64,000 nucleotides of DNA from an uncultured Acidimicrobiia bacterium (GCA_963786955.1 CAWBAT010000005.1:1248001-1312000); one strand, 5' to 3'; positions 28,552 to 61,406 are shown, counted from the stretch's first letter. The notes: a model not told the origin generated them from the letters alone. Translations and numbers: made by a program.

Positions 28552-29289
28552 ATGAAAAGACGGTTTATTGTTTCTCCGGTGATCTTTCTTTTTGCTTTAG
28601 CATTTTTGTCTGGTGCCGAAGCTATAGCCAGAACATTCACCACCAATTTCCCTCTTACGGAGAACCCCATTTCAGAGAGTGGAGCTTGGATCAACGGTAA
28701 AACTGTTGGTCTTGATTGGGCTAATGTTAGGACGACTCCAGGGAAAGCATTCGGCACTCAAGTTCCAGGCACAGGCAATTACTACGGAGATTCTACTGCA
28801 GTGCTGTCTGGGAACTGGGGAGCGGATCAAACATTGACCGCTGGTGTTTATTCGGCCAATTTGTCCACAAATGGAGAAGTGGAGCTAAGACTTCGTACAT
28901 CGATCACAGCCCACAGCATTACGGGCTATGAAGTAAATTTTTTGGCTCAAAACAGTGGCAACAGCTACTGCCAGATTGTTCGATGGAACGGTCCTGCAGG
29001 GAGTTTCACGGTCCTGGCAGATGTGGGGGGGAGTTCCACGCAGATTGCGAATGGAGCTACTATTAAGGCGACAATTGTTGGCAACGTCATAACTGCCTAT
29101 GTCAATAGTGTTCAAGTAGCACAGTCGACTGATAGTACCTATGCGACGGGTAGTCCAGGCATAGGATTCTTTCTCTCAGGAGGAAGTTCCAGCTTAAACG
29201 CTGATTTTGGACTTACAAGTTTTACGGCTTCGGACGCCGCAGATACAACAGCTCCATCTCCGCCAGAGAATCTGCGCATTTTACCTTGA
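28552..29289 (+). CDS. Secreted beta-sandwich (ConA/lectin-like) protein with C-terminal APSPPENLRILP tail
   Basis: Signal peptide (MKRRF..AEAIA), Gly/Ser/Thr-rich beta protein, GNVITAYVN..TDSTYATGSPGIGF. Confidence 0.75.
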   Translation: MKRRFIVSPVIFLFALAFLSGAEAIARTFTTNFPLTENPISESGAWINGKTVGLDWANVRTTPGKAFGTQVPGTGNYYGDSTAVLSGNWGADQTLTAGVYSANLSTNGEVELRLRTSITAHSITGYEVNFLAQNSGNSYCQIVRWNGPAGSFTVLADVGGSSTQIANGATIKATIVGNVITAYVNSVQVAQSTDSTYATGSPGIGFFLSGGSSSLNADFGLTSFTASDAADTTAPSPPENLRILP

Positions 29290-29327
29290 TGAATGAAGCC
29301 AAAAGGGAATCTTCAGAAGAAGTAAAT

Positions 29328-29427
29328 GGTGTGCGATTCGATGATCCAGCCTTCACAATTCAATGGACATTGGTTGCCTCAGTAGTTTCTGAACAGGATC
29401 GCAACTGGCCACTTGTGGAAGGTGTAG
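29328..29427 (+). pseudogene. Duplicated 3' end of rfbC
   Basis: GVRFDDPAFTIQWTLVASVVSEQDRNWPLVE versus rfbC GVRFDDPAFGIEWPLVATIVSDQDRNWPLLE. Confidence 0.85.
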
Positions 29428-29443
29428 GAGGTCCTAAAACAAC

Positions 29444-30769
29444 GTGATGGTAGATACTGTACTTCGAGAGCGTGAAAACCAGGGTCGTCCGATCCGCGTC
29501 GGAATGATTGGAGCCGGCGCGACGGGCCGTGCCATTGCCCTGCAGCTCGGGACACCAGTTCCGGGGATTCGTCTGGCGGCGATCGCAAACAGAACGCTAG
29601 CGCACGGTGAGCGGGCATTTCGCGAAGCCGGCATCACGGAGTGGAGTCGGGCAGGATCTGCACGCGAGGCGGAATCGGCGATCGGCCGTGGGCTTCCAGT
29701 GCTTACGGATGATCCCTCGTTGCTGACCAGCTGCGACGCTGTCGATATCCTGGTAGAGGTGACGGGCACCGTGGAAGCCGCAGCCCATGTTGTGATCGAT
29801 GCGTTCGACCATGGCAAGCACGTGGTCCTAGTGAACGCGGAGCTCGATTCGATGCTCGGTCCGATTCTCAAAGCGAAAGCAGACCTGGCCGGGGTGGTCC
29901 TTACCCACACGGACGGGGATGAGCCGGGTGTGGCGATGACCCTCTTTCGCTATCTCCGATCGCTAGGACTACATCCCGTGGCCGCGGGCAACCTTAAGGG
30001 GATGGTTGACTACTACCGGACCCCCGAGACCCAACGGGCATTTGCCGAGAAGAATGACCAGGATCCCAGGAAGGTGACTTCGTTTGCAGACGCCACGAAG
30101 TTATCCATGGAGGCAACGGTTCTGGCAAACGCGACAGGCTTCCACGTGGGTCGCCCTGGCATGTATGGCCCTGCCTGCAAGTATGTTCGCGAGATGGCAA
30201 ATCTGCTCCCCGCCAACCAGATGCTCAGCACCGGCCTCGTGGACTATGCCCTTGGAGCCGCGCCCTACACCGGTGCCTTTGTCATCGTTCACGAAGCATC
30301 GCCACTCAAAAAAGCTCAGTTAGCCTACTACAAACTGGGCGACGGGCCATTTTACGTTTTTTACACTCCGTTTCATTTACCTCACATCCAAATCGCCTCG
30401 ACCATCGGTCGAGCAGTTATTCATCGCGATCCGACCGTTGCACCCATCGCCGGGCCTGTGTGTGAGGTCGTGACAGTCGCAAAGAAAGATCTGAGAGCAG
30501 GTGAACATCTTGACGGGATCGGTGGCTTCTGCACCTATGGGCTTGTGGATAACACTGTCGCCGCTCGCGCGCGAGCAGCGCTCCCAATAGGCCTCTCGGA
30601 AGGCTGCGTATTGCTTCGGGATGTTTTGAAAGACGAGGTGCTCTCTTTCGATGATGTGATATCACCACCGGACCGATTGGTCGAAACCCTCTGGCGTGAA
30701 CAGAACGCACGTTGGGCGACCGCAGCAGGAGAAACTAAGGCACGGTTAAAGCAAGAAACGACTGCATGA
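29444..30769 (+). CDS. NAD(P)-dependent oxidoreductase, homoserine-dehydrogenase-like, with C-terminal SAF domain
   Basis: IRVGMIGAG, VLVNAELD, DGDEPG, SFADATK, AKKDLRAGEHLDGIGG, LPIGLSEG. Confidence 0.85.
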   Translation: MMVDTVLRERENQGRPIRVGMIGAGATGRAIALQLGTPVPGIRLAAIANRTLAHGERAFREAGITEWSRAGSAREAESAIGRGLPVLTDDPSLLTSCDAVDILVEVTGTVEAAAHVVIDAFDHGKHVVLVNAELDSMLGPILKAKADLAGVVLTHTDGDEPGVAMTLFRYLRSLGLHPVAAGNLKGMVDYYRTPETQRAFAEKNDQDPRKVTSFADATKLSMEATVLANATGFHVGRPGMYGPACKYVREMANLLPANQMLSTGLVDYALGAAPYTGAFVIVHEASPLKKAQLAYYKLGDGPFYVFYTPFHLPHIQIASTIGRAVIHRDPTVAPIAGPVCEVVTVAKKDLRAGEHLDGIGGFCTYGLVDNTVAARARAALPIGLSEGCVLLRDVLKDEVLSFDDVISPPDRLVETLWREQNARWATAAGETKARLKQETTA

Positions 30770-30842
30770 ACAGCTCCATAAGAGTTATGTCGCTCCACAG
30801 GCAACAACGGTTGCAGCGCCAACCGAAAAATCGAGAGAGATT

Positions 30843-32180
30843 ATGACAATGCCAAACATTATAGTTCTAGGGAGCGGAATGGGCGGGTTCGGAGCTGCTT
30901 ACCGGCTACACAGCGAAGGCATTACACCGGTAATGTACGACCAGAACTCTTACCATGGGGGCCACACCGCGTCGTTTCGACACGACGAGGGCTTTCTCTT
31001 TGACCAAGGCCCCCACATTTCTTTTACGAAGGATCCACGCATTCAAGACCTTTTTGCTGACAGTGTTGATCAGCAGTACGAAACCGTGCAGATCAGGTTG
31101 AATAATTACTGGCGTGGTTACTGGCCACTGCATCCGGTTCAGCTCCACCTTCATGGGCTGCCGGAAGACGTCATAGTAAAGGTCATTACCGACTTTGTGG
31201 AGGAGCGTCAGCTCCCCGAACGACCGATAAAGAACTATGAAGACTGGCTATTCGCAAGCTTTGGTCGGACATTTGCCGAGCTTTTTCCCATGCAATACAC
31301 GCGAAAATACCACCTCACGACGGCTGCGAACATGAGCACCGATTGGCTGGGTCCACGGATCTACCGCCCTACCCTCGAAGAGGTTCTACACGGTGCGCTC
31401 TCGTCTTCAGCTCCACACGTCCACTATATTACGCATTTCCGTTATCCCACCGAGGGTGGATTCATGTCCTACCTCAAGAAATTCGTCCCGCTGGGAAATC
31501 TTAAACTTAATCATAAGTTGGTATCTCTCGACGCCAAGATGCAACAGCTTAGCTTCTCGAATGGTTCTGTGGCGAAGTACGATGCACTCGTCTCTTCGGT
31601 ACCTCTGCCAGATCTCGTGGGTATGATTAAAGGCGTACCGACAGATGTTCTAGACGCTTCCCGACGACTGGCCTGTTCAACTTGCGTCCTGGTGAATGTC
31701 GGCGTGAACCGCGAAGACCTTTCCCGGGCGCACATGAGTTATTTCTATGACGAAGACATTTGTTTCACACGCCTCAGCTTCCCCCACATGCTTTCGGCCC
31801 GAAACGTTTCTCCCGGCACTGGAAGCATTCAGGCAGAGGTCTATTTCTCTGACAAGTACAAGCCCCTGACCGGGTCCCCTCAAGACTGGATCGAACCTGT
31901 TATAAAAGATCTCCACAGCTGTGGGCTCCTACGTGAGGATGACCGAGTCCTTTTCAGCAATGCCATGCTGGTGAAGCATGCCAACGTCATTTTTGATCTT
32001 GACCGTGCGGCTGCACTGAAGACGGTCCACGGCTACCTCGATGATATTGGAATATCCTATTGTGGACGATATGGAGATTGGGGATATATGTGGACGGACG
32101 AGAGCTTCAAGAGCGGGGAGTGTGCCGCAGAACGGGCTCTTTCAACCCTGGTGGCTAGACCCCAACAGAGCATATTGTAG
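30843..32180 (+). CDS. FAD-dependent oxidoreductase (protoporphyrinogen oxidase / UDP-Gal mutase-like fold)
   Basis: VLGSGMGG dinucleotide motif, FDQGPHISF, FRYPTEGG, CGRYGDW.Y. Confidence 0.8.
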   Translation: MTMPNIIVLGSGMGGFGAAYRLHSEGITPVMYDQNSYHGGHTASFRHDEGFLFDQGPHISFTKDPRIQDLFADSVDQQYETVQIRLNNYWRGYWPLHPVQLHLHGLPEDVIVKVITDFVEERQLPERPIKNYEDWLFASFGRTFAELFPMQYTRKYHLTTAANMSTDWLGPRIYRPTLEEVLHGALSSSAPHVHYITHFRYPTEGGFMSYLKKFVPLGNLKLNHKLVSLDAKMQQLSFSNGSVAKYDALVSSVPLPDLVGMIKGVPTDVLDASRRLACSTCVLVNVGVNREDLSRAHMSYFYDEDICFTRLSFPHMLSARNVSPGTGSIQAEVYFSDKYKPLTGSPQDWIEPVIKDLHSCGLLREDDRVLFSNAMLVKHANVIFDLDRAAALKTVHGYLDDIGISYCGRYGDWGYMWTDESFKSGECAAERALSTLVARPQQSIL

Positions 32181-32195
32181 AAAGGAGTACTTCAC

Positions 32196-32981
32196 ATGAA
32201 GGTCGTTCTCTTTTGCGGAGGGCTGGGAATGAGGATAAGGGAAAACAACGAAAGCCTCCCCAAGCCCATGGTTCATCTCGGTTACAGGCCGCTCTTGTGG
32301 CATGTGATGAAATATTACGCGCACTTCGGCCATAAGGACTTCATCCTTTGCCTCGGTTATCGATCCGATGTCATAAAGAATTACTTCCTGGGATATAGCG
32401 AATGCCTTTCCAATGATTTCCTTCTGTCGAAGGGAGGCAAGGACATTAAGTTATATTCCTCAGACATCAGCGATTGGAAGATAACCTTTGCAGATACTGG
32501 CGTCAATTCCAACATTGGCCAGAGACTCAAGGCGATTGAGACTTATTTAAAGGATGAAGAGATATTCCTGGCGAATTACAGTGATAACTTAACGGACCTC
32601 CCTCTTCCAAAGCTGTTGGATTACTCTCATGAGCGCGATAAGGTGGCTACACTGCTTTGTGTGAAACCTAATATGAGTGTTCACTCAGTCTCTTTAGATT
32701 CATTGGGAAGCATCAAAGAGATATCAGAAATCGATCGAACGAATCTTCGGATAAACGGTGGATACTTCGTTTTCAAAAGAGAAATTTTTAAATATTTAAG
32801 GGATGGCGAGGAGTTAGTAAATGAACCTTTTCAGCGTTTGATCGTTGAAAACCAGCTGGTTGGTTATCCTTACGATGGTTTCTGGAAGGCAATGGACACT
32901 TTTAAGGACAGGCAGCAATTGGAGGCCTTGCATGCCACGGGAAAAGCCCCTTGGGAAATTTGGAAGAATAATGGCAAGTAA
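32196..32981 (+). CDS. rfbF: Glucose-1-phosphate cytidylyltransferase
   Basis: LFCGGLGMR, PKPMV, GHKDFILCLGY, INGGYF, GFWKAMDTFKD, APW. Confidence 0.92.
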   Translation: MKVVLFCGGLGMRIRENNESLPKPMVHLGYRPLLWHVMKYYAHFGHKDFILCLGYRSDVIKNYFLGYSECLSNDFLLSKGGKDIKLYSSDISDWKITFADTGVNSNIGQRLKAIETYLKDEEIFLANYSDNLTDLPLPKLLDYSHERDKVATLLCVKPNMSVHSVSLDSLGSIKEISEIDRTNLRINGGYFVFKREIFKYLRDGEELVNEPFQRLIVENQLVGYPYDGFWKAMDTFKDRQQLEALHATGKAPWEIWKNNGK

Positions 32982-33030
32982 TTATGGACCTGAACCTTAA
33001 ACCCATGCATTTTGAAAGGTGCCATTATTT

Positions 33031-33681
33031 ATGCTGAAGCTACAGCTCCCTAACAAGCGTTCTAACTACCAGATTCTATGTGTAGGAGCTCATTCCGACG
33101 ACATCGAAATTGGGTGTGGCGGAGCAATTCTAAAGCTGATCAAGGAGTGTAAGAATCTGACGATTCACTGGATCGTATTTAGTGCGGAACCAGAACGGAA
33201 ACGCGAAGCTTTGAGGAGCGCAAGGCTTTTCTTGAAGGGAACAGCAACTGAGAACCTCTCGGTCAAAGAATTCAGAGGCAGCTTCTTTCCCGATCAGTAC
33301 GCTCAAATCAAGGAAGCATTCGAGCTAATCAAAGGGAAGAACTCACCCGACCTGATCTTTACGCACAGCCGCCACGATTTGCATCAAGACCATCGGGTTA
33401 TCAATGAACTTACCTGGAACACGTTCCGCGACCATTTCATTCTGGAGTACGAGATCCCTAAGTACGACGGTGATTTAGGGAATCCCAATTTTTACATCCA
33501 GTTGGACGAATCGCTTTGTGCACGCAAGCTCCAATACGTTCTTCAATCCTTCAAGACGCAACGGACCAAACACTGGTTTACGGAAGACACATTCAGAGCC
33601 CTTCTGAGGTTGCGAGGTATCGAGTCTGGTGCTTCTGCAAAGTATGCAGAAGCCTTCTATGCAAGGAAGATTGCCCTATAA
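33031..33681 (+). CDS. PIG-L/LmbE-family deacetylase
   Basis: AHSDDIEIGCGG, DLHQDH, YEIPKYDGD. Confidence 0.88.
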   Translation: MLKLQLPNKRSNYQILCVGAHSDDIEIGCGGAILKLIKECKNLTIHWIVFSAEPERKREALRSARLFLKGTATENLSVKEFRGSFFPDQYAQIKEAFELIKGKNSPDLIFTHSRHDLHQDHRVINELTWNTFRDHFILEYEIPKYDGDLGNPNFYIQLDESLCARKLQYVLQSFKTQRTKHWFTEDTFRALLRLRGIESGASAKYAEAFYARKIAL

Positions 33682-33955
33682 AAAATATGAACTCACGAAG
33701 TAAAGTTACGTTTTGTGTCATCCTCGAATCGTTCCCAGTAATCCAGGGGGTTGGCCAATTTTTGAACATTCCCTGTTGGGGAATGAATATACCAGCAGGA
33801 AGTTATTACAAAACCAAATCCACCTTTAGGAGTGGGGATCTCCTCCCTTTGCTATCGAGGGTAAACCCGTTGAGCGGAGTTCTTCCGAATTGAAACTTGA
33901 AGGATAGGATACTGAAACGACTAACCGGAGTAGGTTGCTCCGGATTAATGGGGCC

Positions 33956-35281
33956 ATGGAGATATCGATGATCACAAGAGTCCTCCCAGATCGCTTGGTT
34001 GGCGTTGAATTGAAGAAAGCCTGCTATTCCGCGCACAACAATTTGGGCAGGCTCCTCTTCTTGTTACGAAATTCGAACTACTCATTCACCCGATATATTC
34101 TCAAAGACTTCATCAGATTCCTGACAAACTCGGTTGTACCGGTAGAAGGACAATCGAGAGAAAGAGCTCGCGAAGCGGCAGACTGGCTCATCAGAGCGTG
34201 GTATGCGACGTCTAATTTTGGTGTGTCTTATGGATATTTCCCGTGTGATAACGAGAAAGGCTGGCTCGATTCTTACCCAGAGACGACAGGTTACATCATT
34301 CCCACAATGCTTGAGTTTGCCCGCCGCTACAGATATGACGCCGCCAGGAGCATGGCCCTGAAAATGTCGCGATGGGAAATGGACATTCAAATGGAATCAG
34401 GAGCCGTTCAGGGAGGACGTTTTTCACACTTGCAACCCCAGGCGGCTTCAGTCTTCAACACCGGTATGGTTCTTAAAGGTTGGAGCGCTGCATATCGGGA
34501 ATGTCATGATGAGAGCTTTCTCCTCGCGGCAAAGAAAGCGGCGGCCTTTATGCTCAATGATCTGGATGACGATGGTTACTTCAGAACGCACGGTCCATTT
34601 GTCAAACAAGAGAGGATCAAGACATACAATTGCCTTTGTGCGTGGAGTCTGTTCTGCCACGGAGAAGATGCAGCCGATAGCTCTTGTAAAGAGGCTGCTA
34701 TCAAGGTGACCGAATCAGCGCTTCGCCAGCAGAAACCGAATGGCTGGTTCGCTAACAATTGCCTGACAAATGGGGAGGCACCCTTGCTCCACACCATTGG
34801 CTATACACTCCAAGGAATTCTGGAGATGGGATTTCTGACCGGTCGGAGCGATTACATCGAGGCCGTTCGACTTGGCACCGATCCGCTAATTTCGCGCATT
34901 TCAACGAAAGGTTTTCTGTATGGTCGCTACAAACCGGATTGGGAGCCTGCCAACTCATCGAGTTGCCTTACCGGCTCCGCACAGCTCGCAGTCGTTTGCT
35001 ACAGACTGTACGAATATACCGGAGCTGACCAATATCGACTCGCGGCAGATCGGTTGTTGAACTATTTGAAAGCCTTGCAGGACGTAAAGACCAGCAATCT
35101 GTCCATCAAGGGGGCAATCGCTGGCTCGTTTCCTCTCTTTGGAGAATACATGACCGCAGGGTACCCGAATTGGGCTACCAAATATTACCTCGACGGGTTG
35201 ATATTACAGGATCGGCTTGGCCACGTAGTTGACGCCGGCTCCGCCGAGGCATTGAAGCAAAAAACCGTCGGGATTCATTGA
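33956..35281 (+). CDS. Putative (alpha/alpha)-barrel protein (prenyltransferase/squalene-oxidase-repeat-like) of EPS loci
   Basis: SYPETTGYIIPT, FNTGMVL.GW, QKPNGWF, LHTIGY, CLTGSAQ, YPNWATKY; start uncertain. Confidence 0.65.
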   Translation: MEISMITRVLPDRLVGVELKKACYSAHNNLGRLLFLLRNSNYSFTRYILKDFIRFLTNSVVPVEGQSRERAREAADWLIRAWYATSNFGVSYGYFPCDNEKGWLDSYPETTGYIIPTMLEFARRYRYDAARSMALKMSRWEMDIQMESGAVQGGRFSHLQPQAASVFNTGMVLKGWSAAYRECHDESFLLAAKKAAAFMLNDLDDDGYFRTHGPFVKQERIKTYNCLCAWSLFCHGEDAADSSCKEAAIKVTESALRQQKPNGWFANNCLTNGEAPLLHTIGYTLQGILEMGFLTGRSDYIEAVRLGTDPLISRISTKGFLYGRYKPDWEPANSSSCLTGSAQLAVVCYRLYEYTGADQYRLAADRLLNYLKALQDVKTSNLSIKGAIAGSFPLFGEYMTAGYPNWATKYYLDGLILQDRLGHVVDAGSAEALKQKTVGIH

Positions 35282-35563
35282 GTGCTTCATTCTTCGAGAA
35301 GCCTCCCCTCCCTCATTTTCTCCTAGAAAGATCATTCAAGCAGTCATCCCATATTAGGATATTGGCCGACTCCTGGTGTTTGAAAATCTCGATGGTCACG
35401 GCGGTCGCAAACTCGACCGCGCCGACCGATTTTTCGTAGTGAATTCCAGCGCGCAGGTGATTACAGAGGGGCCCATCATCCGCAAACTTCTCATGATTTA
35501 CCGCATGTCCACCGGCCTTTGTCGGGTAACGCCCGGCGTTCTCTGTCATTAGCTCTCCCACTC

Positions 35564-37069
35564 ATGTCAAGAAGCGTTCAAAGCAAGATGATGCACGGCG
35601 CCTTTTGGATGGTGCTATTGAAGCTCGCGGACCACGGCCTTGGGTTTACCAGTATGCTTATCCTGGTGCGCCTGCTCTCGCCGGCGGATTTTGGAATCGC
35701 TGCCATGGGAGGTTCTTTTGTCGCATTGGCAGAATTACTCACTGCCTTAGGGTTCGACTACGCACTGATTCAACATCCGAAACCAACCCAGGAACACTAT
35801 CACACGGCGTGGACATGCAACGTGCTTCTCGGATCCGCTGTTACCGCTCTCTCGCTTGCGGTCGCTTGGCCGGTCGCCCAGTTTTACCGCCAACCTAAAG
35901 TGTTCTGGGTGATGTGTGCACTTGCATTCGGTCCTCTTCTGGCGTCCCTGGAGAACATTGGCATCGTCAACTTTCGAAAGGAGTTGCAATTCCGCAAAGA
36001 GTTCACGTTCCGATTGAGCCGCCGGATCTTTACTTTCCTCGTGGCCTTGCCGCTGGCCTTTTGGTGGCGCAGCTACTGGGCGCTGGTTGTCGGAATCTTG
36101 ATAAACAAGCTAGGCGTTTCCGTGTTGAGCTACATGGCGCACGAATTTCGGCCGCGCTTTTGTCTAGAGCACGTAAAGGAACTGTTCGGTGTATCGAAGT
36201 GGCTCTTAATTAGCAACATAATCAGCTCCTTAAGGCAGCGATCCACAGATTTCGTCATCGGGAGATGGCACGGTGCAGCGGCCCTTGGGTTCTATGGCAT
36301 TAGCTATGAAATCGCCAACACGCCGACGGCCGATTTGAGCGCCTCCATCAATCGGGCATTGATGCCGGGTTTCGCAAAGATTGAGACCGGCAATGAACTC
36401 CGTGCTGCTTACGGCAACGCGATGAGCGTCCTCGCAATGATTGCCCTGCCTGCCGGGGCTGGCGTCTATGGGGTAGCGCCATTCCTCGTGCCTGTCGTGC
36501 TTGGAAGTAAATGGTTACAGAGCACGGCGTTGGTGGAGATCCTCGCCTTCAATGGTGTCGTTCTCCTGTTCCATTCCTCTATTTGTGCAGTGCTCTTGGG
36601 GAGAGGTTATCCCGATGTCGTTACAAAGACCAGTGCCCTGTACGTCCCGTTGTTTTTCGGGTTGCTGGCTCTGTTCGGTGCCCATTATGGCGTTGCCGGC
36701 GTCGCATACTCGTCGTTGGCAACGTCGGTCATGATGACTCCCCTCTACCTTTATCACGTAAAACGGCGGATTGGGGTTGCATCTGAAGTATTCCTACGGG
36801 CGATCACCCGACCAGCAATCGCTTCCATTCTAATGGCATGGATCGTGCGCATGGTGCTCCCAGCCTATGAGCTCTCAATGTCGACGCGACACGCAGCCTC
36901 CTTGCTGATTGGTGGCGCAGCTCTGGGCGTTGCGGTCTATGCAGTTGCAATAGGGCTGCTATGGCTCCAAGCTGGACGTCCCGCCAGCGCGGAGCGCCTT
37001 GTGCTTGCGCGTATCCGAAGAGCAACCGCCTCGGTTAGCGTCGGCAGCTCACTGTGGAACGGTAAATGA
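35564..37069 (+). CDS. wzx: Wzx/WzxC-type polysaccharide flippase, copy 2
   Basis: Colinear close paralog of 21550..23055. Confidence 0.88.
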   Translation: MSRSVQSKMMHGAFWMVLLKLADHGLGFTSMLILVRLLSPADFGIAAMGGSFVALAELLTALGFDYALIQHPKPTQEHYHTAWTCNVLLGSAVTALSLAVAWPVAQFYRQPKVFWVMCALAFGPLLASLENIGIVNFRKELQFRKEFTFRLSRRIFTFLVALPLAFWWRSYWALVVGILINKLGVSVLSYMAHEFRPRFCLEHVKELFGVSKWLLISNIISSLRQRSTDFVIGRWHGAAALGFYGISYEIANTPTADLSASINRALMPGFAKIETGNELRAAYGNAMSVLAMIALPAGAGVYGVAPFLVPVVLGSKWLQSTALVEILAFNGVVLLFHSSICAVLLGRGYPDVVTKTSALYVPLFFGLLALFGAHYGVAGVAYSSLATSVMMTPLYLYHVKRRIGVASEVFLRAITRPAIASILMAWIVRMVLPAYELSMSTRHAASLLIGGAALGVAVYAVAIGLLWLQAGRPASAERLVLARIRRATASVSVGSSLWNGK

Positions 37070-37153
37070 TTGTTGGCCGAAAAATAGAATTTGGGCCGGA
37101 TTTGTTCAATTCGGTGGACACAGAGCCACCCGTCGCCTTCAGAATTTGTTCTA

Positions 37154-38092
37154 ATGTCGCGTTTTCTGGATGGGAAATTGCGAAACATCTTAACCATTGA
37201 CGTCGAGGATTACTTCCAAGCCAGTGCATTTGACCGGATCATTGGTCGCGGTGAGTGGGATCGCGTCGAAAGCCGGGTGACAGTGAACACTGAAATAATT
37301 CTGGAACTCATGGCCGCCAAAAACGTAATGGCAACATTCTTCATTCTCGGTTGGGTGGCTGAGCGATTTCCTGACTTGGTTGCACGGATCCACTCGCAAG
37401 GGCACGAGGTTGCCTGTCATGGTTACAGTCACAAACTCATCTATCAGCAGACTCGCCAGGAGTTTGCTGAGGAAACACGTCGAGCCAAGTCGGTCCTGGA
37501 AGACATTATTGGCCGCCCCGTGGTTTCCTATCGGGCGGCCAGCTACTCAGTCACCAGGAAGTCTCAATGGGCTCTGCAGATCCTGGCTGAGGAAGGCTTT
37601 CAGTACGATTCCAGCATCTTCCCCATTGTTCACGACCGGTACGGAGTGCCTAGTTCTCCCCGTTACCCATTTCGACTAAAGCTGGAAGACGGAAAGGAAC
37701 TGTTCGAGTTTCCGATTTCCACTCTCCGAGTATTGGGCATTAACTTTCCTATGGCAGGGGGAGGATACTTCAGACTATTGCCCTATGTTGCTACCAGGAA
37801 AGCGGTCTGCAGGCTTAACTCTCGGGATAGGCTGCCGCTGATTTTTTACCTGCATCCATGGGAGTTTGATCCCGAGCAACCGCGACTGCGAGTCGGAAGA
37901 TCCACAAGATTTCGGCATTATTTGAATCTCAAGCGAACCGGTGATCGTTTTCAATGCCTGTTGCGGGACTTTGAGTTCAGTTCGCTGGCAGAGATCGCAT
38001 CCACCATGAATTTTCCCAGCTTGGCTCTTGACGAAGTCATGAACAATTCCCAAGGGAAGTCCGCCAAGATCGATTCGGCGAAAAAGGTTTAG
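37154..38092 (+). CDS. XrtA-system polysaccharide deacetylase (CE4 + DUF3473-like)
   Basis: TIDVEDYF, ATFFILGWVAE, HEVACHGYSH, YRAASYS, GGGYFR, YLHPWE.DP.QPR. Confidence 0.9.
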   Translation: MSRFLDGKLRNILTIDVEDYFQASAFDRIIGRGEWDRVESRVTVNTEIILELMAAKNVMATFFILGWVAERFPDLVARIHSQGHEVACHGYSHKLIYQQTRQEFAEETRRAKSVLEDIIGRPVVSYRAASYSVTRKSQWALQILAEEGFQYDSSIFPIVHDRYGVPSSPRYPFRLKLEDGKELFEFPISTLRVLGINFPMAGGGYFRLLPYVATRKAVCRLNSRDRLPLIFYLHPWEFDPEQPRLRVGRSTRFRHYLNLKRTGDRFQCLLRDFEFSSLAEIASTMNFPSLALDEVMNNSQGKSAKIDSAKKV

Positions 38093-38223
38093 TAGATGCT
38101 CATGGGTAGCTCGGTTTTGCATATTCTAGAGACACTTGGCTTTTATACCTGTCACGAGAATGATCGGTCCTATCATCAGAAAACGCATCAGCTTATGAGT
38201 CGACTTTTTTCAGACATTCAACC

Positions 38224-52872: not shown

Positions 52873-52909
52873 GAAGCTTTCTGCATGTAGTGGTTTTGAA
52901 TTCGGTGCC

Positions 52910-53926
52910 ATGCTGCATAAACTACCTTCCGCCACCCACGTCCAGGAAACTGAAATCGTCCCTCGGAAAACTCTGATCGATCCGCGCGTGCGGATTCCGA
53001 TCGCGCTCGCCGCCGTGACAATGTGCGTAGCAGTCGCCGTGCTCGGGCCGGACCCGAACCCGTATCTTCGTTCCGCGGAACGCTTTCACGACTTCCTGCA
53101 CGTGCCAGGATTCGGGCTCGTGGCTGCTTTTCTGCTCTTTGGCTTCCCATATCGCCCCGGCGCGACGCTCGGGAGGCGGACTTGGCATGTGGCAGTGCTC
53201 TTCATGGTCTCCGTCGCCATCGGCACCCTGGTCGAATTACTCCAGGGGATGCTAGGCAGCGATCCGGACCCGTGGGACGTCGTGCACGATGGGGCAGGCG
53301 CAGCGGCGATGTTGCTGGGTGCCGCCTCGTTCTGGCCCGCCGTGCGAACGTCCGGTCGCTGGGGACTACGTCTGGCGGCGCTGATTGCGGCGATCGGCTT
53401 TGCGGGGCCGACGATCTACGCGATTACCGACGAGGCCCGCGCACGGCGCGAATTCCCTGTCCTTGCCAGTTTCAACCGAGCCGAAGAGATCGACCGCTTC
53501 GAGTGGTCGGCTCTCGCGTCCGCGTCGCTCGTGCGCTTGGACAGGGGCGGCGCGGGCCAACGACGAGCGGTTCAGGTGACGTTTTCTCCCGGCGAGTACC
53601 CGGGGTTCACTTTGAAGTATTTCCCGCGAGACTGGCGCGGTTTCCAGCAGTTCGTCCTCTCTTGTACCAACGTTTCGGACGTCCCGTTCGACGTGACCAT
53701 CCGGCTCGATGACATGCAACACAACGAGGATTATTTTGATCGCTTCAACCGGAGCTACGTGCTCGCGCCGGGCCGCAACGAGATAGTCATTCCCTTGGCC
53801 GCCGTCGAGGCTGCACCGCTTGGGCGGAAGTTCGACCTCGGTCGCGTCCGGAGCGTCATGATTTTCGCCTATCGGTTGAAAGCGTCGCGGGAGATCCTGG
53901 TCGAAAGCCTGCGCCTCGATCGCTGA
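52910..53926 (+). CDS. VanZ-family membrane protein with a C-terminal carbohydrate-binding-like domain
   Basis: DFLHVPGFG, VELLQ..LG.D.D..DV..D..GA; C-terminal YPG..PRDW..F..RFN..GRNEI.IPL. Confidence 0.7.
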   Translation: MLHKLPSATHVQETEIVPRKTLIDPRVRIPIALAAVTMCVAVAVLGPDPNPYLRSAERFHDFLHVPGFGLVAAFLLFGFPYRPGATLGRRTWHVAVLFMVSVAIGTLVELLQGMLGSDPDPWDVVHDGAGAAAMLLGAASFWPAVRTSGRWGLRLAALIAAIGFAGPTIYAITDEARARREFPVLASFNRAEEIDRFEWSALASASLVRLDRGGAGQRRAVQVTFSPGEYPGFTLKYFPRDWRGFQQFVLSCTNVSDVPFDVTIRLDDMQHNEDYFDRFNRSYVLAPGRNEIVIPLAAVEAAPLGRKFDLGRVRSVMIFAYRLKASREILVESLRLDR

Positions 53927-54034
53927 GCGCAGCTAGGACACTCAACGCGGTGGGGTATCATACCATCTTGGAAAGGCCAAGCTAGTATCGGTATTGCGTC
54001 ATCTCGCACCACCCCTGCGGCACTGCGCGCCATA

Positions 54035-54058
54035 TCCCCTCCTCAGCAGAGGAGGGGA
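54035..54058. terminator. GC-rich hairpin between convergent genes (possible bidirectional terminator or REP remnant)
   Basis: TCCCCTCCTC-AGCA-GAGGAGGGGA perfect 10-bp stem. Confidence 0.5.
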
Positions 54059-54139
54059 GCTTTCATGCAACCATGCAGTTTCGCGAAAGCAACTAGGTAA
54101 CGGGAATACGCGAGGAAGCTCGCACCAACGGAAGCGGAT

Positions 54140-55069
54140 TTAGTTTATTTTCCTTAAGTTTTGAGGGGGGAGGGGAGCTGAAGCGTCCGTTGAGCATCCA
54201 ATTCGCTGGGTGGAAACAACTAAGTTATCCCAATAACGTGACTGCACCTGTGAGGCGCCGTTATTAATGTAATTTTCAAAAAATACTGCATTGATGCCAT
54301 AGGTGCTATAGCTACCGATAAAATTTAGGTTGGTTTTGCTTGCCTCAAGATGACCGTCAATCCAGAATTCTTGTATGCCATTCGACTGTCCCGCATCGTT
54401 CAACTTCACGTGCGCTTCAACGCAGTTCCACGTTCCGGCATTTGGAGAAGTGAAGATTGGGGTAGTACCACTCGCGCCCCCCAGGTAAACGATATGGGAA
54501 CTATCGTTATAGCCAACGCAATTTACCGTACTTCCTGTTACACAACTTGCAGGATCAATGAGTAAGTAATTATTGTTCCCCCCTGTATCATTTGACCATA
54601 GGTGAGCAATCATCGCCTCCGACCAATTCGAGGCAACAAAAGAAATCGCCCGTGTGAACTTGCTGTTGTGTCCACTTCCCTGACCAACCCAGTTGGCTTG
54701 AGACTTCAAATAGACCCGGTAATACACTTCTCGAAATTTCGTTGTACTATCCACTCCTGCAGGAGGAGGCATACCTGCACCTGGAGGTGTCATCCCTAGC
54801 GCTAATTTAAGTGATCCTGCATCCACTTGTCCGGAAGTCCAACTTGCCCGCATCCCATACGAATTGTTGAAGCCAATTCCAGACACTCTCGCAAAGCCGC
54901 CCTGGCCAGACGAATCAAAGTAGTTGGATATCTTGTCCGTTTCGAAATCATCGCACCATAACCAGGCCGGATGCAGTGTTTTCCAGTTGGACGGGCATTC
55001 GTCCGCAAATGAATTCAACGAAAACGTGGTGTACAGACAGAGCATGGCAAAGGGAATTGCATATTTCAC
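54140..55069 (-). CDS. Secreted jelly-roll (polysaccharide lyase/Cip1-like) protein with C-terminal APLPPQNLRKIN tail
   Basis: Signal peptide, WCDDFE, EVYYRVYLK, W.CVE.HVKLN..G..NG..EFWIDG, YWDNLVVST.RIGC; GGAG before GTG 55069. Confidence 0.7.
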   Translation of the reverse strand: MKYAIPFAMLCLYTTFSLNSFADECPSNWKTLHPAWLWCDDFETDKISNYFDSSGQGGFARVSGIGFNNSYGMRASWTSGQVDAGSLKLALGMTPPGAGMPPPAGVDSTTKFREVYYRVYLKSQANWVGQGSGHNSKFTRAISFVASNWSEAMIAHLWSNDTGGNNNYLLIDPASCVTGSTVNCVGYNDSSHIVYLGGASGTTPIFTSPNAGTWNCVEAHVKLNDAGQSNGIQEFWIDGHLEASKTNLNFIGSYSTYGINAVFFENYINNGASQVQSRYWDNLVVSTQRIGCSTDASAPLPPQNLRKIN

Positions 55070-55138
55070 TGATGTCTCCAAACAAATGATTTGATCTACT
55101 AGGGCCCAGTTCTCTGCAGGAAGCGGCAGAGAATTTAC

Positions 55139-56020
55139 TTATTGAATCCGCAGGTTAGTCGGTGGATTGGGAGGATTAACGGGACTTCCTGAAATATTCG
55201 AATTCCATGTATCATCTGTCGAGTAATCATCTGTCCATATATTTCCACCAGACCCGCAGGAACTTCCACCATTGCAATTCTGATGGTAGAAGACCTGGCA
55301 CATCGCATTGCCCCAGGTCGCCCCAGAAAAATCCCCACTCGCAGAATTGTAGAGATTGTGAACGAAGCTACCTACACTTGTTCCATTGACAAACAGTTCT
55401 ACCTTTCCACTGCCACCAGAAGTCGTTTGAAGAGTCAATGCGATAATGTACTCTTGATAATTCTTAGCCGCCGCTCCATTGAAGTTGTAATTCACGCTCC
55501 CGCAGACCCCACCACTACAACCGCTTCCATTGGTCGACTCCACGTTGATATTCGTCGTGTCGAGGTAAAACGTGAGCAGGTCACTGCCTCCGCCCTGCGT
55601 CAGCCGAATGATCTTATTGTGGCCCCTATTCCCAAAGCTAAACGTGCTGCCAAACTTCATCCACCAACGAAAGTAAAACGTCTTCCCACTAAACCACGTC
55701 CCAGCCCCGTAACTCCCGCTCTGCAAGTCATTACACCCACTCTGCCCATCACTTCCATCAGGAATCGTGTACTTCATCGCTCCGCTGCCATCATGCCCCC
55801 CCGTTGCATCAATCACCGCATTCGCAAAATTACACGTCCCTTTACTCGTCGTCGCACTGTCCGCATTCCAAGTAAAGTAGTTAGTTGCCATGGCGTCCTG
55901 ACCGGCCACGAACAGACAGAGAAACCAGATTATAGCCGCCAGACAAGACGACTTTTTCATTCTGGCTAAATAGAGCTTCCTGCTGCTGGGGAGACGCCAA
56001 AATGAAGAGGTGATTGTCAT
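55139..56020 (-). CDS. Secreted jelly-roll (polysaccharide lyase-like) protein with C-terminal PPNPPTNLRIQ tail
   Basis: AAGGAG RBS before ATG 56020, signal peptide ending QDAMA, FYFRWWMKF, HNKIIR, GKVELFVNG, IWTDD. Confidence 0.7.
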   Translation of the reverse strand: MTITSSFWRLPSSRKLYLARMKKSSCLAAIIWFLCLFVAGQDAMATNYFTWNADSATTSKGTCNFANAVIDATGGHDGSGAMKYTIPDGSDGQSGCNDLQSGSYGAGTWFSGKTFYFRWWMKFGSTFSFGNRGHNKIIRLTQGGGSDLLTFYLDTTNINVESTNGSGCSGGVCGSVNYNFNGAAAKNYQEYIIALTLQTTSGGSGKVELFVNGTSVGSFVHNLYNSASGDFSGATWGNAMCQVFYHQNCNGGSSCGSGGNIWTDDYSTDDTWNSNISGSPVNPPNPPTNLRIQ

Positions 56021-56885
56021 AGCAAAACTTCTCCTTGATTTGAACCGTTTCGTCAAGAGCGAACCTACATTGCCCGATAGGCTGAGTTTTCCGTCCCGCA
56101 ATGATCTTTCAACGTTCATTGGCTCACCGAATTCAAACCTATCCGAACTGCGCGCCAATGCCAGCGTCTTCTTTGCGGACCTCAATTGATTCTCTTGCGT
56201 CCCGGGGACCGTATATTGAAATCTTTCAGGCGCCATTTGGATTTCGTAGAACGACTGTCGAGCCCGGAAACATTACGGCATGAGAATCGCCAAAATCGCT
56301 CAGGCGTCAAGAACCAGATTAGCAGCTTTCTGGCCGCAGTTCACGCTTTCTTGGGGGCAGCTCAGAAATATGAAATTCCTAGCCAAGTTTGAGTATACAA
56401 CTTTCTTTTAAGTTGGATAGTTATGCTAACGAATCATCCAGTCCAAGCGGTGGAAAAGTCAAATCAATACCTGAACTTAGCCGATCTAATCCAGCCTGGA
56501 CCAGGTCTCCGGGATCATTACGACCTCTGAAGGAAGCTTCTTAACGAAACAGACTGAGCGGAGGCTTAAGAGGTTTTTGCCTGCACCCCTCGACTGCGTT
56601 CCGTCATTGAGTTCGAGGAAGGCCATAACTAATTCTGTAATGTCGAGAACAATATTGCAACCGCTGATCAAATCGTGTTGAAAAGTGACGTCCGAGCAGA
56701 GCGCCCCAGCCATACTTTGCTTATTGATGGAACAGGCACATGGACTTACCTTATACTTTGCCGACAGGCGCGCGTCACAGCGATGACAGTGATGGGACGG
56801 GCCATACTGAAGAAAGAGATCCATTCCCACCAGTACTAAAGGTAACAGGGGGTTGTGGCGATATAGATTTGGCCTTCTAAATACC

Positions 56886-57956
56886 ATGCCTATTAGTCCT
56901 CCAAATATCGCCCCAAAGGAAACCACAGTTACTGAAATATCGAATCGTCTTGACTCTGTTACATCCTACAACGCGTATCGCGAAAGACACCGGCACAATA
57001 GCTTCTACCACGATCCCGCCTGGGTAGACGTTATCCGTTCCTGCTTTGGTCACGAGACTCATTGGATTACGGTAAAGCAAAATGACAGGCTGACCGGAGC
57101 TCTTCCGCTGGTTTTCCTAAAGAGCCGGCTATTCGGAAAGGCGCTGGTCTCCATGCCCTATTTCAACTATGGCGGGATTCTGGCAGATGATAGCAGCGTC
57201 ACACAAATTCTCGTAAAGGGAGCTCTTGACCTTAAAGCAAGATTGCGGGCAGATTACATCGAGCTTCGTCAGACAGAAAAACTGGACTCCAACTGGCCCT
57301 TCCGGTCAAACAAGGTAAATATGCTGCTGTCGCTTCCTGGGCACGCCGAAACGCTCATGAAAGGCTTCAAGTCGAAGCTGCGCAATCAAATCCGACGTCC
57401 GGAAAAAGAGGGCTGTACCTTCCACTGGGGACAGGTCGAGCTTCTGCCTGAGTTTTACTCGGTTTTTGCAGAAAATATGAGAGATTTGGGTACACCTGTT
57501 TACCCGCAACGCTTTTTCAATACTATTCTTGAAAAATTCTCCGGTCAGTCCAATATTGCGGTGGTTCGGCTACGACAGAAGCCGGTTGCAGCCGCCTTCC
57601 TCGTTCATTATCAAAACAAGATGGAGATCCCCTGGGCAAGCTCCTTGAGGTCTTTTAATCCGGTCTCTCCAAATATGATGTTGTATTGGGGGGCTCTCGA
57701 GCGTGCTATTGCAATGGAAATGATCCAATTTGATTTCGGACGCTCATCTGTGGGCAGTGGAACATACCAATTCAAAGAACAGTGGGGTGCTTTGCCGCAT
57801 CCGACTTTTTGGATTTATCCAGGGAGCGCGGCCTCTCAACTTCCTGAACACAGCCCCCAAAGTAGCAAGTTTTTCTGGGCTACTCAGATTTGGAGGCGTC
57901 TGCCCCTGTTTCTGACAAACACAGCCGGACCCTGGATCGTTAAGAATATTCCGTAA
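56886..57956 (+). CDS. FemAB-like GNAT protein, XrtA/PEP-CTERM-system associated
   Basis: SRLFG..LVSMPYFNYGG, KLRNQIR, NMRDLGTPVY, PNMMLYW, FDFGRSS..GTYQFKEQWGA. Confidence 0.88.
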   Translation: MPISPPNIAPKETTVTEISNRLDSVTSYNAYRERHRHNSFYHDPAWVDVIRSCFGHETHWITVKQNDRLTGALPLVFLKSRLFGKALVSMPYFNYGGILADDSSVTQILVKGALDLKARLRADYIELRQTEKLDSNWPFRSNKVNMLLSLPGHAETLMKGFKSKLRNQIRRPEKEGCTFHWGQVELLPEFYSVFAENMRDLGTPVYPQRFFNTILEKFSGQSNIAVVRLRQKPVAAAFLVHYQNKMEIPWASSLRSFNPVSPNMMLYWGALERAIAMEMIQFDFGRSSVGSGTYQFKEQWGALPHPTFWIYPGSAASQLPEHSPQSSKFFWATQIWRRLPLFLTNTAGPWIVKNIP

Positions 57957-57986
57957 CGCCAAGTTCCGCAAATTCAGGGTAATTGT

Positions 57987-58569
57987 TGTAGCTGGGATCG
58001 CTGATCCTGGCCTGGGAGATTGGACATTTTTCGATAAAGTGCAGCGGCAGAATGCCGCTGCTTCCCCTGAGTGCCCTGTAAATTAGGCGATAGAATTCTA
58101 GCCCAGGGCCAGCGAGGAGCAAGAGCTCCTCACGCCGCCCTGGGTCAGCATTTCAACCAATATTATCTCCTCTCCCCCCGAATTGCTAGCCTTTCGGCGA
58201 TTCGGGGGGAGAGGGCGGGAGTGGGGGGTATTCGTTGCCAAATCCTGAATCATGCGTTTCGTTGTTGTTGCAGTGTTTGTCGGAACGAAGCGTGAGTTTT
58301 CGACGTCGACACCTTCTGCCCCCCCCTCACCTTCGCCCTCTCCCCCAACACGGAAAAGGTGTTGGGGGAGAGGGTAGGAATTCGTGGGAACGCTGACCCA
58401 GGGCAGCCGCAGCGGCTACTGCCGCTGGCGGCGCCCTGGGCTAGAATCCAACGCCCCGATGGGGCTCTCGAAGGAGGAAGCGGCCTCATGCCGCTTCATA
58501 AATGTCCAAACTCCAGAGCTGGGATCGCTGATCCTGGCCTGGGGGCCGGCCTCACCGCGGCCAGCTACA
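57987..58569. mobile_element. Non-coding MITE-like palindromic element inserted into a REP-like hairpin with a long direct repeat
   Basis: TIR about 17 bp (TGGGAGATTGGACATTT / AAATGTCCAAACTCCAG); AGCTGGGATCGCTGATCCTGGCCTGGG repeated at 57990 and 58517; nested internal inverted repeats. Confidence 0.75.
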
Positions 58570-59037
58570 GCTTGCACAAGTTAATTTCAAGTCTATCGCT
58601 TCATTTCTCGACCCACCCATTTGATTCCGCGAAGTCTCACTTCTTTTAGCATCCAATCCACGATGGCTATTACTGGTCCCAACTTGTAGTAGCTCCGCTT
58701 CAGATCCTTCGGTAACGGCGGCATTGCGTTACCCACGGCCTCCCGCAACGTCCTCCCTAACTACTCTGCTTTACGAGTTCCTTCCCGAATTCCCCCACCC
58801 CCAACTCACATCTACTCGAGTCCTCTTTGGATAATTCCACTGTAGCTCTCCAGCTCAAGGGCCCCGACCTTCTCAAAATTTCTCTCGGTTCAAATTGCAG
58901 CTCTTAGATTTCCGAGTGATGGCAAACATATGGTTCAGAAAGGGACTAATTCATAGATCCGAAATCAACTAGCGCTAAACCTTCAAAAATTTGGCGATGC
59001 AGGATGTGCGGAGCAAGATTCGCTCCCCGGTAACAGA

Positions 59038-59057
59038 ATTGTTCACAGTGGAACAAT
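59038..59057. promoter_or_regulatory. Candidate enhancer-binding-protein site
   Basis: Perfect inverted repeat ATTGTTC-N6-GAACAAT about 50 bp upstream of the -24 element. Confidence 0.55.
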
Positions 59058-59106
59058 CTCAGATGATTAAACATTAGACGTTGCAAGATTAGAGGTCAAA
59101 AACGAA

Positions 59107-59122
59107 TGGCATGCAAGTTGCT
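59107..59122 (+). promoter_or_regulatory. Sigma-54 (-24/-12) promoter
   Basis: TGGCATGCAAGTTGCT: GG-N10-GC, close to the TGGCACG-N4-TTGCW consensus, about 50 bp before ATG 59174. Confidence 0.8.
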
Positions 59123-59173
59123 GTACTTCAAGATGGAAAGAGGGCTTTTCTTGATTGGAGGAATCATAACATC

Positions 59174-59680
59174 ATGAAGTATAAAGCAGATAAACTTATT
59201 ACGATCACTATACTTCTTATTGTTGGAATGGTTCTTTTGCCTTCCTGTTTAATGGCAGCAGATGTTCAACTTGCCTGGAATGCCAATACAGAGTCCAACT
59301 TGGGTGGATACAGGATCTACTACGGGACGAGTTCGGGTAACCTGAGCAGTTCAGTCAACGCCGGGAACGTGACAGCCTATACCCTGACCGGACTTTCGCT
59401 TGGAACAACTTACTATTTTGCGGCGACTGCCTATAACACATCTGGGAGCGAAAGTGGTTTTTCAAACATCGTTTCTGCGACGGCTGGTTCTTCTTCTTCG
59501 CCTAGCTGTGATGTGAATGGGGATGGTTCTGTGAACGCACTCGATCTACAAGGATTGAGCAATGGCATATTGGCTGGATCCACGTCCAGTGTTTACGACA
59601 TTAATCGGGATACCGCAGTGAACGCTTTGGACTTGCAACGGCTTGCAAATATTATTCTCGGCACCGCTGTTTGCCAGTAG
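59174..59680 (+). CDS. Secreted FN3 (A-strand-less) + dockerin-like protein
   Basis: Signal peptide then directly DVQLAW..GYRIYYG..LTGL..GTTYYF..TAY..ES.FS; duplicated Ca-binding loops DVNGDGSVNALD and DINRDTAVNALD. Confidence 0.85.
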   Translation: MKYKADKLITITILLIVGMVLLPSCLMAADVQLAWNANTESNLGGYRIYYGTSSGNLSSSVNAGNVTAYTLTGLSLGTTYYFAATAYNTSGSESGFSNIVSATAGSSSSPSCDVNGDGSVNALDLQGLSNGILAGSTSSVYDINRDTAVNALDLQRLANIILGTAVCQ

Positions 59681-59726
59681 CTGCGAGAATGGGAATCATC
59701 AGACTAACTAAGGTGAAGGATTGGTC

Positions 59727-61406
59727 ATGCATATAGACAAGCGCTTTGCATTTCTTTTGATGGCTTTGATGATAATCTTGGGGGCATTCGTCTTATCGAC
59801 AGAGACCGCATTTGCCCAGGCCCCGGTTGTGAGCGTTGGAACGGCCAGCGGAAACGCTGGAACAGCTGTGGACTTGACCGTGTCTTTCACGGCTGGCGCC
59901 ACTGGAGTAAGCACCCTCCAATTTGACCTGACGTTCCCCTCGTCTCTAGCCTATGTTTCGACGACAACAGGTGCGGCGGCAACCGCGGCTGGGAAATCGG
60001 CAAGTGGCAGCGCTATCTCCGGAGGTGCTCGAGTGTTGGTCTTCGCACTTAACACAACCTCGATTGGTTCGGGTGCAGTCGCCATAGTTCGACTCAACAT
60101 CGCCAGTGTCACCAGCCCGGCATCCATACCTGTGGGCATCACGGGAATTGTCGCATCAGATTCTGTCAGCAACGCGGTTACTGCTAACGGTTCTGGCGGC
60201 TCGGTCACAGTCACAACCCCTGGCGACACGACCGCACCGGTGATTTCGGCAGTGACGGCCTCAGGCATGACGGCGACGGGAGCAACCATTAGCTGGACGA
60301 CCAACGAAGCGTCTGATACGCAGGTGGAGTATGGGAAGACGACGGCTTATGGAAGTCTGACGACGTTAAATGGCAGCATGGTGACGTCGCACTCACAGGG
60401 TTTGAGTGGACTCACGGCCAGCACGACTTATAACTACCGGGTGCGGTCGAAGGATGCGGCTGGAAACCAGGCGGTATCGGGGAACGCAACGTTTGCGACG
60501 ACAGCGGCGGCGGACACAACGGCACCGGTGATTTCGGCAGTGACGGCCTCAGGCATGACGGCGACGGGAGCAACCATTAGCTGGACGACCAACGAAGCGT
60601 CTGATACGCAGGTGGAGTATGGGAAGACGACGGCTTATGGAAGTCTGACGACGTTAAATGGCAGCATGGTGACGTCGCACTCACAGGGTTTGAGTGGACT
60701 CACGGCCAGCACGACTTATAACTACCGGGTGCGGTCGAAGGATGCGGCAGGAAACCAGGCGGTATCGGGGAACGCAACGTTTGCGACGACAGCGGCGGCG
60801 GACACGACGGCACCGGTGATTTCGGCAGTGACGTCGTCAGGGATGTCGGCGACGGGAGCGACTATTAGCTGGACGACCAATGAAGCGTCGGATACACAGG
60901 TGGAGTATGGGACGACGACGGCTTATGGGAGTCTGACGACGTTAAATGGCAGCATGGTGACGTCGCACTCGCAGGGTTTGAGTGGACTCACGGCCAGCAC
61001 GACTTATAACTACCGGGTGCGGTCGAAGGATGCGGCTGGAAACCAGGCGGTATCGGGGAACGCAACGTTTGCGACGACAACGGCGCCGGACACGACGGCA
61101 CCGGTGATTTCGGCAGTGACGTCGTCAGGGATGACGACGACGGGAGCGACCATTAGCTGGACGACCAATGAAGCGTCGGATACACAGGTGGAGTATGGAA
61201 CGACGACGGCTTATGGGAGCACCACAACCCTCAACACTTCCCAGCTCACCAGTCATCTCCAATCGGTGAGTGGTTTGTCTGCGAGGACGCTTTACCACTA
61301 TCGAGTCAAATCCAAAGATGCGGCAGGTAATCTGGCTACTTCAGCTGACTTGACTTTTACCACTTCCTCAGTCTTACCCCCTCCAACCAATGTTACGGTC
61401 AAGTAG
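59727..61406 (+). CDS. Secreted cohesin-like + 4x FN3-like repeat protein with C-terminal LPPPTNVTVK tail
   Basis: Signal peptide; cohesin-like VSVGTASG.AG..V.L.V..VSTLQFDLTF..IGSG.VA.V.L; four 96-aa DTTAPVIS..ATISWTTNE.SD.QVEYG..YNYRV.S.DAAGN repeats. Confidence 0.8.
   Translation: MHIDKRFAFLLMALMIILGAFVLSTETAFAQAPVVSVGTASGNAGTAVDLTVSFTAGATGVSTLQFDLTFPSSLAYVSTTTGAAATAAGKSASGSAISGGARVLVFALNTTSIGSGAVAIVRLNIASVTSPASIPVGITGIVASDSVSNAVTANGSGGSVTVTTPGDTTAPVISAVTASGMTATGATISWTTNEASDTQVEYGKTTAYGSLTTLNGSMVTSHSQGLSGLTASTTYNYRVRSKDAAGNQAVSGNATFATTAAADTTAPVISAVTASGMTATGATISWTTNEASDTQVEYGKTTAYGSLTTLNGSMVTSHSQGLSGLTASTTYNYRVRSKDAAGNQAVSGNATFATTAAADTTAPVISAVTSSGMSATGATISWTTNEASDTQVEYGTTTAYGSLTTLNGSMVTSHSQGLSGLTASTTYNYRVRSKDAAGNQAVSGNATFATTTAPDTTAPVISAVTSSGMTTTGATISWTTNEASDTQVEYGTTTAYGSTTTLNTSQLTSHLQSVSGLSARTLYHYRVKSKDAAGNLATSADLTFTTSSVLPPPTNVTVK
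60225..61370 (+). repeat. Four tandem 288-bp coding repeats
   Basis: Units start at 60225, 60513, 60801 and 61089; the first three are nearly identical at DNA level. Confidence 0.95.

Follow-up and report, generated by a model that had tools for sequence, protein, structure and literature searches.

In the cohesin-dockerin scaffolds of cellulosomes, secreted carbohydrate-related proteins carry portable docking modules, the tag being a folded calcium-binding module. Other assemblies, TasA and the archaeal bundling pili among them, complete an incomplete beta-sandwich with a strand from a neighbour. Chaperone-usher pili employ an N-terminal donor and the Pam pili of the candidate phyla radiation (CPR) a linker strand, both with chaperones (PMC13655056, PMC13278184; here and below, statements about cited papers refer to excerpts of them). 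In the type V pili of Porphyromonas (FimA/Mfa1), the C-terminal donor strand of one subunit occupies the N-terminal groove of the next, with tip, shaft and anchor roles, and the pilins, lipoproteins with two transthyretin-like domains, have a groove that gingipains open by cleavage (PMC13655056). Of the solved structures among the systems compared, BppU-BppA of phage Tuc2009 comes closest: there a C-terminal extension completes a sheet in a carbohydrate-binding protein that a separate gene encodes (PMC4742702). Here we describe a stretch of 64,000 nucleotides from an uncultured Acidimicrobiia bacterium (GCA_963786955.1, CAWBAT010000005.1:1248001-1312000; the whole stretch is called the window, and its contig C5) in which four proteins with signal peptides end in a peptide resembling strand A of a fibronectin type III (FN3) domain, and a fifth begins with an FN3 domain that lacks this strand. 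We believe, with somewhat better than even confidence, that strand-A complementation in trans links tips, extenders and bases which display carbohydrate-related heads in the exopolysaccharide (EPS) layer, the tail acting as a plug and the strand-A-less FN3 as its socket.

By layout, known here from the sequences, the polarity would be that of type V pili, with a C-terminal donor and an N-terminal acceptor groove, and, as in chaperone-usher and Pam pili, a neighbour's strand would complete an incomplete beta-sandwich. The candidate donor is, however, a C-terminal FN3 strand A, unlike that of chaperone-usher pili. In contrast to the two-domain transthyretin-like pilins of type V, the fold is FN3 (by Pfam and by a fold search with the model of a socket relative, L003), the strand is missing from the socket gene itself, and the plug is a portable one, borne by unrelated heads. 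The Tuc2009 extension differs in being a 25-residue hairpin in a virion baseplate, with neither Sec export nor a chain, and the word 'fibronectin' is absent from the excerpted text (PMC4742702). As in cellulosomes, a dockerin and a cohesin-like domain occur together, in the gene pair 59174/59721 (genes are named by their first coordinate in the window), whereas the tag proposed here is an 11-residue strand that would complete a fold. With the PEP-CTERM/exosortase system the locus shares a C-terminal signal, signal-peptide proteins and an exopolysaccharide locus with an exosortase (PMC1569441). As originally predicted, the tails are nevertheless not PEP-CTERM signals: all four lack Pro-Glu-Pro, TIGR02595 does not match, and there is no membrane helix followed by a basic cluster. 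Nor does TIGR04183, the C-terminal sorting domain of type IX secretion (T9SS), match any of the four window proteins. We found no description of secreted bacterial proteins that share an FN3 domain divided between its strands A and B in the open-licence full text of PMC and bioRxiv (subscription journals and supplements lie outside this scope). In their excerpts, none of four further papers describes such a system: PMC12646305, which contains neither 'fibronectin' nor 'strand', PMC13730344 (rope-plus-dimer phage fibres), 10.1101/2025.09.30.679562 (an IPT glycofibril) and PMC2881027.

Tails resembling FN3 strand A are conserved at C-termini

The original prediction, made from the sequence alone, was that four signal-peptide proteins end in this tail without a transmembrane helix, and this holds at all four stops (Table 1). 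Each donor open reading frame (ORF) starts with a hydrophobic stretch ending at an AxA-like site, as called by eye and hydropathy without a signal-peptide predictor; the weakest is that of 54140 (maximum 11-residue hydropathy 1.75). The final 40 residues of each donor contain no hydrophobic helix (maximum 15-residue hydropathy -0.58 to 0.89). NCBIfam holds no model for the tail or for the heads of 28549, 54140 and 55139. A carbohydrate-related role of these three heads is hinted at by their sequences: 28549 gives weak hints of a 3-keto-disaccharide hydrolase or ConA-like domain, and 54140 reaches 25.4 bits with PF21294, just below the cut-off of 27. A third copy of the 28549 head domain lies at C5:1576294-1579572, where it is C-terminal, lacks a tail and is 10 kb from the fourth socket gene of the genome.

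Alignments show homology between the tail and strand A of FN3, as had been proposed. A paralogue at C5:1237171, 70% identical to 28549 over 219 residues, aligns through residue 242 of 28549 and, from the position of the tail, runs on into three complete FN3 domains. The original prediction had treated such continuation in homologues as grounds to abandon a tag. It is also seen in the closest homologues of 55139 (P0361 and P0363), yet these finish downstream in a tail-like strand, as do two proteins in which the 55139 domain is fused to that of 54140 (all by eye). Continuation into FN3 with a tail-like strand again at the end shows origin rather than decay, so the prediction is not overturned.

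The evidence that is decisive against chance is, in our view, the conservation of the tail among homologues. An end-anchored rule, set before the background and homologue counts were made, was matched by 3 of 58 ORFs in the locus and 12 of 4843 elsewhere (p ~6e-4, for a locus picked post hoc), and none of the 12 background matches was convincing by eye. In contrast, 28549 has 1144 homologues, and among the best 120 the rule is matched at the C-terminus by 45; for 54140, with 810 homologues, the figure is 74 of the best 120, and for 55139 it is 21 of 95. Counting tail variants by eye gives higher totals in all three head families. In the 54140 family the stop falls 1-3 residues past the tail in 63 of 67 proteins (17 of the 120 homologues could not be anchored). 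These comparisons show the tail to be a terminal module kept in unrelated proteins, in line with the original claim of a tag, and indicate that it is a real, selected feature. That tails are instead relics of domain shuffling, functionless stubs left by FN3-rich genes broken just past strand A, would fit the paralogues and homologues that run on into a whole FN3, the decayed FN3 gene at 62817 and the many homologues without a tail. We nevertheless consider it highly improbable, because both the motif and its spacing from the stop are kept among homologues only 47-70% identical while the preceding linkers vary freely, an identical break would be required in four unrelated families, and the fusion proteins P0361, P0363, P0368 and P0378 carry a tail-like strand at their new C-terminus.

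In some 54140 homologues the slot of the tail is filled by other C-terminal modules, such as a T9SS domain above cut-off in P0356, which suggests that the slot otherwise holds localisation signals. Further homologues (P0305, P0318, P0349, P0344, P0346, P0357) have other recurring short ends there; these alternatives include leucine-rich, two-cysteine and YLPxIxR-like ends, and the three tested have no NCBIfam model.

Strand-A-less FN3 domains behind signal peptides

A strand-A-less FN3 was also part of the original prediction, which named the 59174 protein, and such a domain is indeed present. It matches PF00041 with 35.8 bits (cut-off 25) over profile positions 15-82 of 84, whereas the 59721 repeats start at position 4. 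By eye, the mature chain begins at strand B, right behind the AxA-like site, and no lipoprotein Cys is seen at the cleavage site. The genome contains four likely sockets, namely the 59174 protein and those encoded at C5:1313408, 1315341 and 1564484, all of which start at strand B after the signal peptide.

This arrangement is widespread. At least 566 stretches in GTDB encode socket relatives, with record titles naming Desulfobacterota, Nitrospirota, Acidobacteriota, Verrucomicrobiota and others. Among the best 79 loci, which were inspected after a search with a query alignment of 8 closer rows, the domain directly follows a signal-peptide-like stretch in 73 of 79, or in 67 of 78 by a stricter rule. 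An AlphaFold2 (AF2) monomer model of the relative L003 consists of a six-strand domain and a whole FN3, with the tail of this protein unpaired. Fold searches with the model returned ordinary FN3 proteins, and the matches listed included no complex with an FN3 that is split or permuted. Proteins with a socket and no tail often have an anchor-like C-terminus by eye, with ends that we take to be membrane helices, T9SS-like domains or GGGCFI motifs. Small single-domain sockets with a membrane helix or a lipoprotein-like signal occur at 3 of 80 metagenome loci (L202, L207, L233) and are candidate anchored sockets.

Socket and tail in one chain

Many relatives carry both elements, a point absent from the original prediction. 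A 461-residue protein encoded 1.4 kb past the window (C5:1313408-1314793) has the layout socket-FN3-FN3-IPT followed by a fifth, variant tail, and its relatives share this layout. L003 consists of socket, FN3 and tail, joined by a linker some three residues long; among homologues a tail stands at the end of 15 of 56 socket-bearing proteins by a loose rule and, under the strict rule, of 11 among all 120. The viral set of 80 loci, less 11 duplicates and 23 not of the signal-peptide type, left 46 socket-type proteins, 8 of which are minimal single-domain permutants: strand A follows strand G after 3-14 residues and the chain ends within 35 residues of strand A (2 of the 8 are weaker by eye). No protein of this minimal type was found among 79 GTDB socket loci. 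The spacing from G to A in the permutants agrees with that within the tandem-FN3 paralogue. In the standard FN3 topology the N- and C-termini lie at opposite poles, so the short-linked strand A of a permutant cannot, on this topology, reach its own groove. The occurrence of socket and tail in many relatives, some nearly linker-free, points to head-to-tail chains and suggests these rather than a one-off tag.

Complementation might be real and yet be confined mostly to intra-chain rings or small dimers of proteins with both ends, with plug-only heads binding weakly or swapping into intact FN3 repeats and no long chains formed. In its favour, a multi-domain protein that has both ends might bend back on itself like a U. 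In the AF2 model of L028, which has both ends and a long linker and an alignment heterogeneous in the middle, the tail is modelled as a strand (pLDDT, the predicted local distance difference test, <55), and no fibre has been observed. We judge this quite unlikely, given that the linkers of the minimal permutants are too short for self-insertion, that the tail is unpaired in the L003 monomer model, and that the four tails of the window are all on proteins without a socket of their own.

Within the window, the adjacent genes 59174 and 59721, kept side by side in another genome (G001), together read as a split extender, with socket and dockerin on one protein and a cohesin-like domain, four FN3 repeats and a tail on the other. 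The cohesin-like domain of 59721 is the only one in the genome. A second dockerin-bearing secreted protein is encoded at C6:146796-147902 and is a possible alternative partner for it. Beyond the window, the 461-residue protein belongs to a cassette of two socket genes (C5:1313408-1317635, L021), the first with the variant tail and the second ending in DUF5719-like repeats; the cassette recurs in three genomes (G002, G006, G007). Six viral socket proteins (L284, L286, L287, L294, L298, L323) have a short, apparently amphipathic helix after a strand-A-like tail, a possible membrane-associating variant.

Predicted pairing, linkage and co-occurrence

The central claim of the original prediction, that the tail completes an FN3 in trans, is favoured by these layouts and by conservation, and structure prediction lends it weak support. 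When the 59174 socket was paired with the 32 C-terminal residues of 28549, complex prediction gave a score of 0.53; the best of three controls scored 0.02. Of 157 solved complexes, 116 attain the mark applied, as do 2 of 215 mismatches; those that attain it with a score of 0.60 or less are just 18 of the 157 solved complexes and both mismatches, and the prediction came without an interface. The runs share at least 94% of contacts, with a partner pLDDT of at least 57. The pass may, moreover, reflect likeness to solved FN3 folds. In addition, tail variants follow socket subtypes within lineages by eye, and matches to the tail rule are modestly enriched beside sockets (10 of 777 versus 12 of 4843, 5 of the 10 being convincing by eye).

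Co-occurrence was examined across the phylum. A socket profile matched in 37 of 150 genomes (about 18 of 30 inspected matches are true sockets), and two narrow DNA patterns, which catch fewer than half of known tails, gave 45 matches in 151 genomes, 4 of them real tails: two in this genome and one each in G124 and G088. Both of these tailed genomes have sockets (chance ~0.06 in an underpowered count), and in G088 tail and socket are 4 kb apart. A search of 400 other genomes detected the 28549 family in only 2, where its members lack the tail and socket-profile matches are present as well; the 54140 family was detected in none of 30 relatives.

Several results weigh against complementation in trans. 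The proteome scan proposed with the original prediction shows no genome-wide enrichment, since among 6391 ORFs the loose motif has 3 terminal matches (2.2 expected) and 82 internal ones. The tail is optional, in that 33 of 110 anchored 28549 homologues stop without one. Co-occurrence with sockets did not show up as local linkage in two tests. Tail-rule neighbours within 10 kb were seen at only 9 of 78 socket loci (5 convincing), and 3 of 78 have a tail of their own. In metagenome contigs, many of them short, tailed 28549 homologues adjoin a signal-peptide socket in 1 of 15 cases versus 2 of 64 for untailed ones (p 0.47). With real tails picked up by the two narrow patterns in only 2 of the 150 genomes of the phylum, sockets also look far commoner than tails. 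Finally, strand-A-less FN3 occurs as a C-terminal or internal domain as well, so the six-strand domain may be stable alone. One socket in this genome lies about 250 kb from any tail, which indicates that partners need not adjoin.

The weak local linkage and the greater number of sockets would also agree with a tail that is a strand-A-derived C-terminal sorting or retention signal read by a different receptor, for instance one that serves export or anchoring, with the strand-A-less FN3 as an autonomous six-strand domain; the other sorting-type ends in the tail slot (T9SS in P0356 and the recurring short ends) point the same way. We rate this as unlikely, because no candidate receptor was seen, because slot swapping is equally compatible with plug-and-socket anchoring and because it leaves unexplained why proteins that lack precisely strand A, including the minimal permutants, so often end in precisely this strand.

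Proposed assembly and its significance

Under complementation in trans, Sec export and signal peptidase cleavage would release a mature chain beginning at strand B and thus leave an open groove in its N-terminal FN3. The C-terminal peptide of another secreted protein would then fill the groove and complete the seven-stranded fold non-covalently. The three carbohydrate-related proteins 28549, 54140 and 55139 would be plug-only heads. Extenders with socket and plug would include the 461-residue protein past the window and, if the dockerin binds the cohesin-like domain, the 59174/59721 pair, while socket-only proteins with other C-terminal modules would be bases. The assembled chains or scaffolds would display the heads in the exopolysaccharide layer. 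Pairing in trans, chain formation, location and purpose are what we infer from the material above.

We regard as possible, while leaning slightly against it, the wider idea that this is a widespread, undescribed self-assembling surface system. A tandem FN3 array would here be divided among genes with the cuts shifted by one strand. Tips, extenders and anchored bases would join head to tail with no need of a chaperone, usher or sortase, and soil and sediment bacteria, together with some phages, could mix and match carbohydrate-active heads on modular EPS-matrix fibres. If true, many secreted proteins of Acidobacteriota, Desulfobacterota, Nitrospirota and other groups that are labelled hypothetical or 'fibronectin type III domain-containing' would gain a sequence-readable assembly rule (who plugs into whom). 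It would also provide a machine-free route of protein display in biofilm matrices, alongside PEP-CTERM, T9SS and cohesin-dockerin, and a tag of 11 residues that comes naturally paired with a catcher of 77.

Genomic setting

Table 1. Features of the locus, in window coordinates
Feature	Coordinates	Strand	Description
Donor 1 (28549)	28549..29289	+	Signal peptide, ~200-residue domain without a curated family, linker, strand-A tail
Tail 1	29251..29289	+	FN3 strand-A-like peptide and stop
Donor 2 (54140)	54140..55081	-	Probable signal peptide, polysaccharide-lyase-14-like domain, tail
Tail 2	54140..54178	-	Tail and stop
Donor 3 (55139)	55139..55960	-	Signal peptide, unnamed domain, tail; 273 residues from likely start 55960
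Tail 3	55139..55174	-	Tail and stop
Acceptor (59174)	59174..59680	+	Signal peptide (59174-59257), FN3 without strand A, dockerin
Strand-A-less FN3	59258..59488	+	Strands B-C-C'-E-F-G; Pfam fn3 from profile position 15 of 84
Dockerin type I domain	59510..59659	+	PF00404, E 3.2e-12, 46.9 bits, above cut-off
Donor 4 (59721)	59721..61406	+	Signal peptide, cohesin-like domain, four complete FN3 repeats, tail
Cohesin-like domain	59817..60218	+	Atlas cohesin clusters 0.95; PDB cohesins E 9e-4; no PF00963 match
Four tandem complete FN3 repeats	60225..61362 (end approximate)	+	~96 residues each; PF00041/PF16656, each matched from profile position 4-6
Tail 4	61371..61406	+	Tail and stop
Decayed relic	62817..63194	+	End of a socket-type FN3 and one FN3; no signal peptide, no tail
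Exosortase	63654..64000, continues past window	+	PF09721 above cut-off; full ORF 291 residues; context only

The host genome (5.65 Mb, ~51% GC) is 93% complete, and the window contains an exopolysaccharide locus of the Wzy type, with a flippase, glycosyltransferases, an O-antigen-ligase-like protein and deacetylases. A PEP-CTERM-system-associated FemAB protein is encoded in the window (NCBIfam, above cut-off). The exosortase and an EpsI-like gene (by eye) span C5:1311654-1313183, but no ORF resembling PEP-CTERM turned up when the genome was scanned with two motifs. Directly upstream of donor 1, positions 28196-28552 hold a short, truncated duplicate of part of the oxidoreductase-like gene 29444, which suggests local rearrangement. 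Two near-identical genes for FabH-like ketoacyl synthases, at 10503-11534 and 17933-18973, lie inside the EPS locus together with acyl-carrier and ligase genes (labels by eye).

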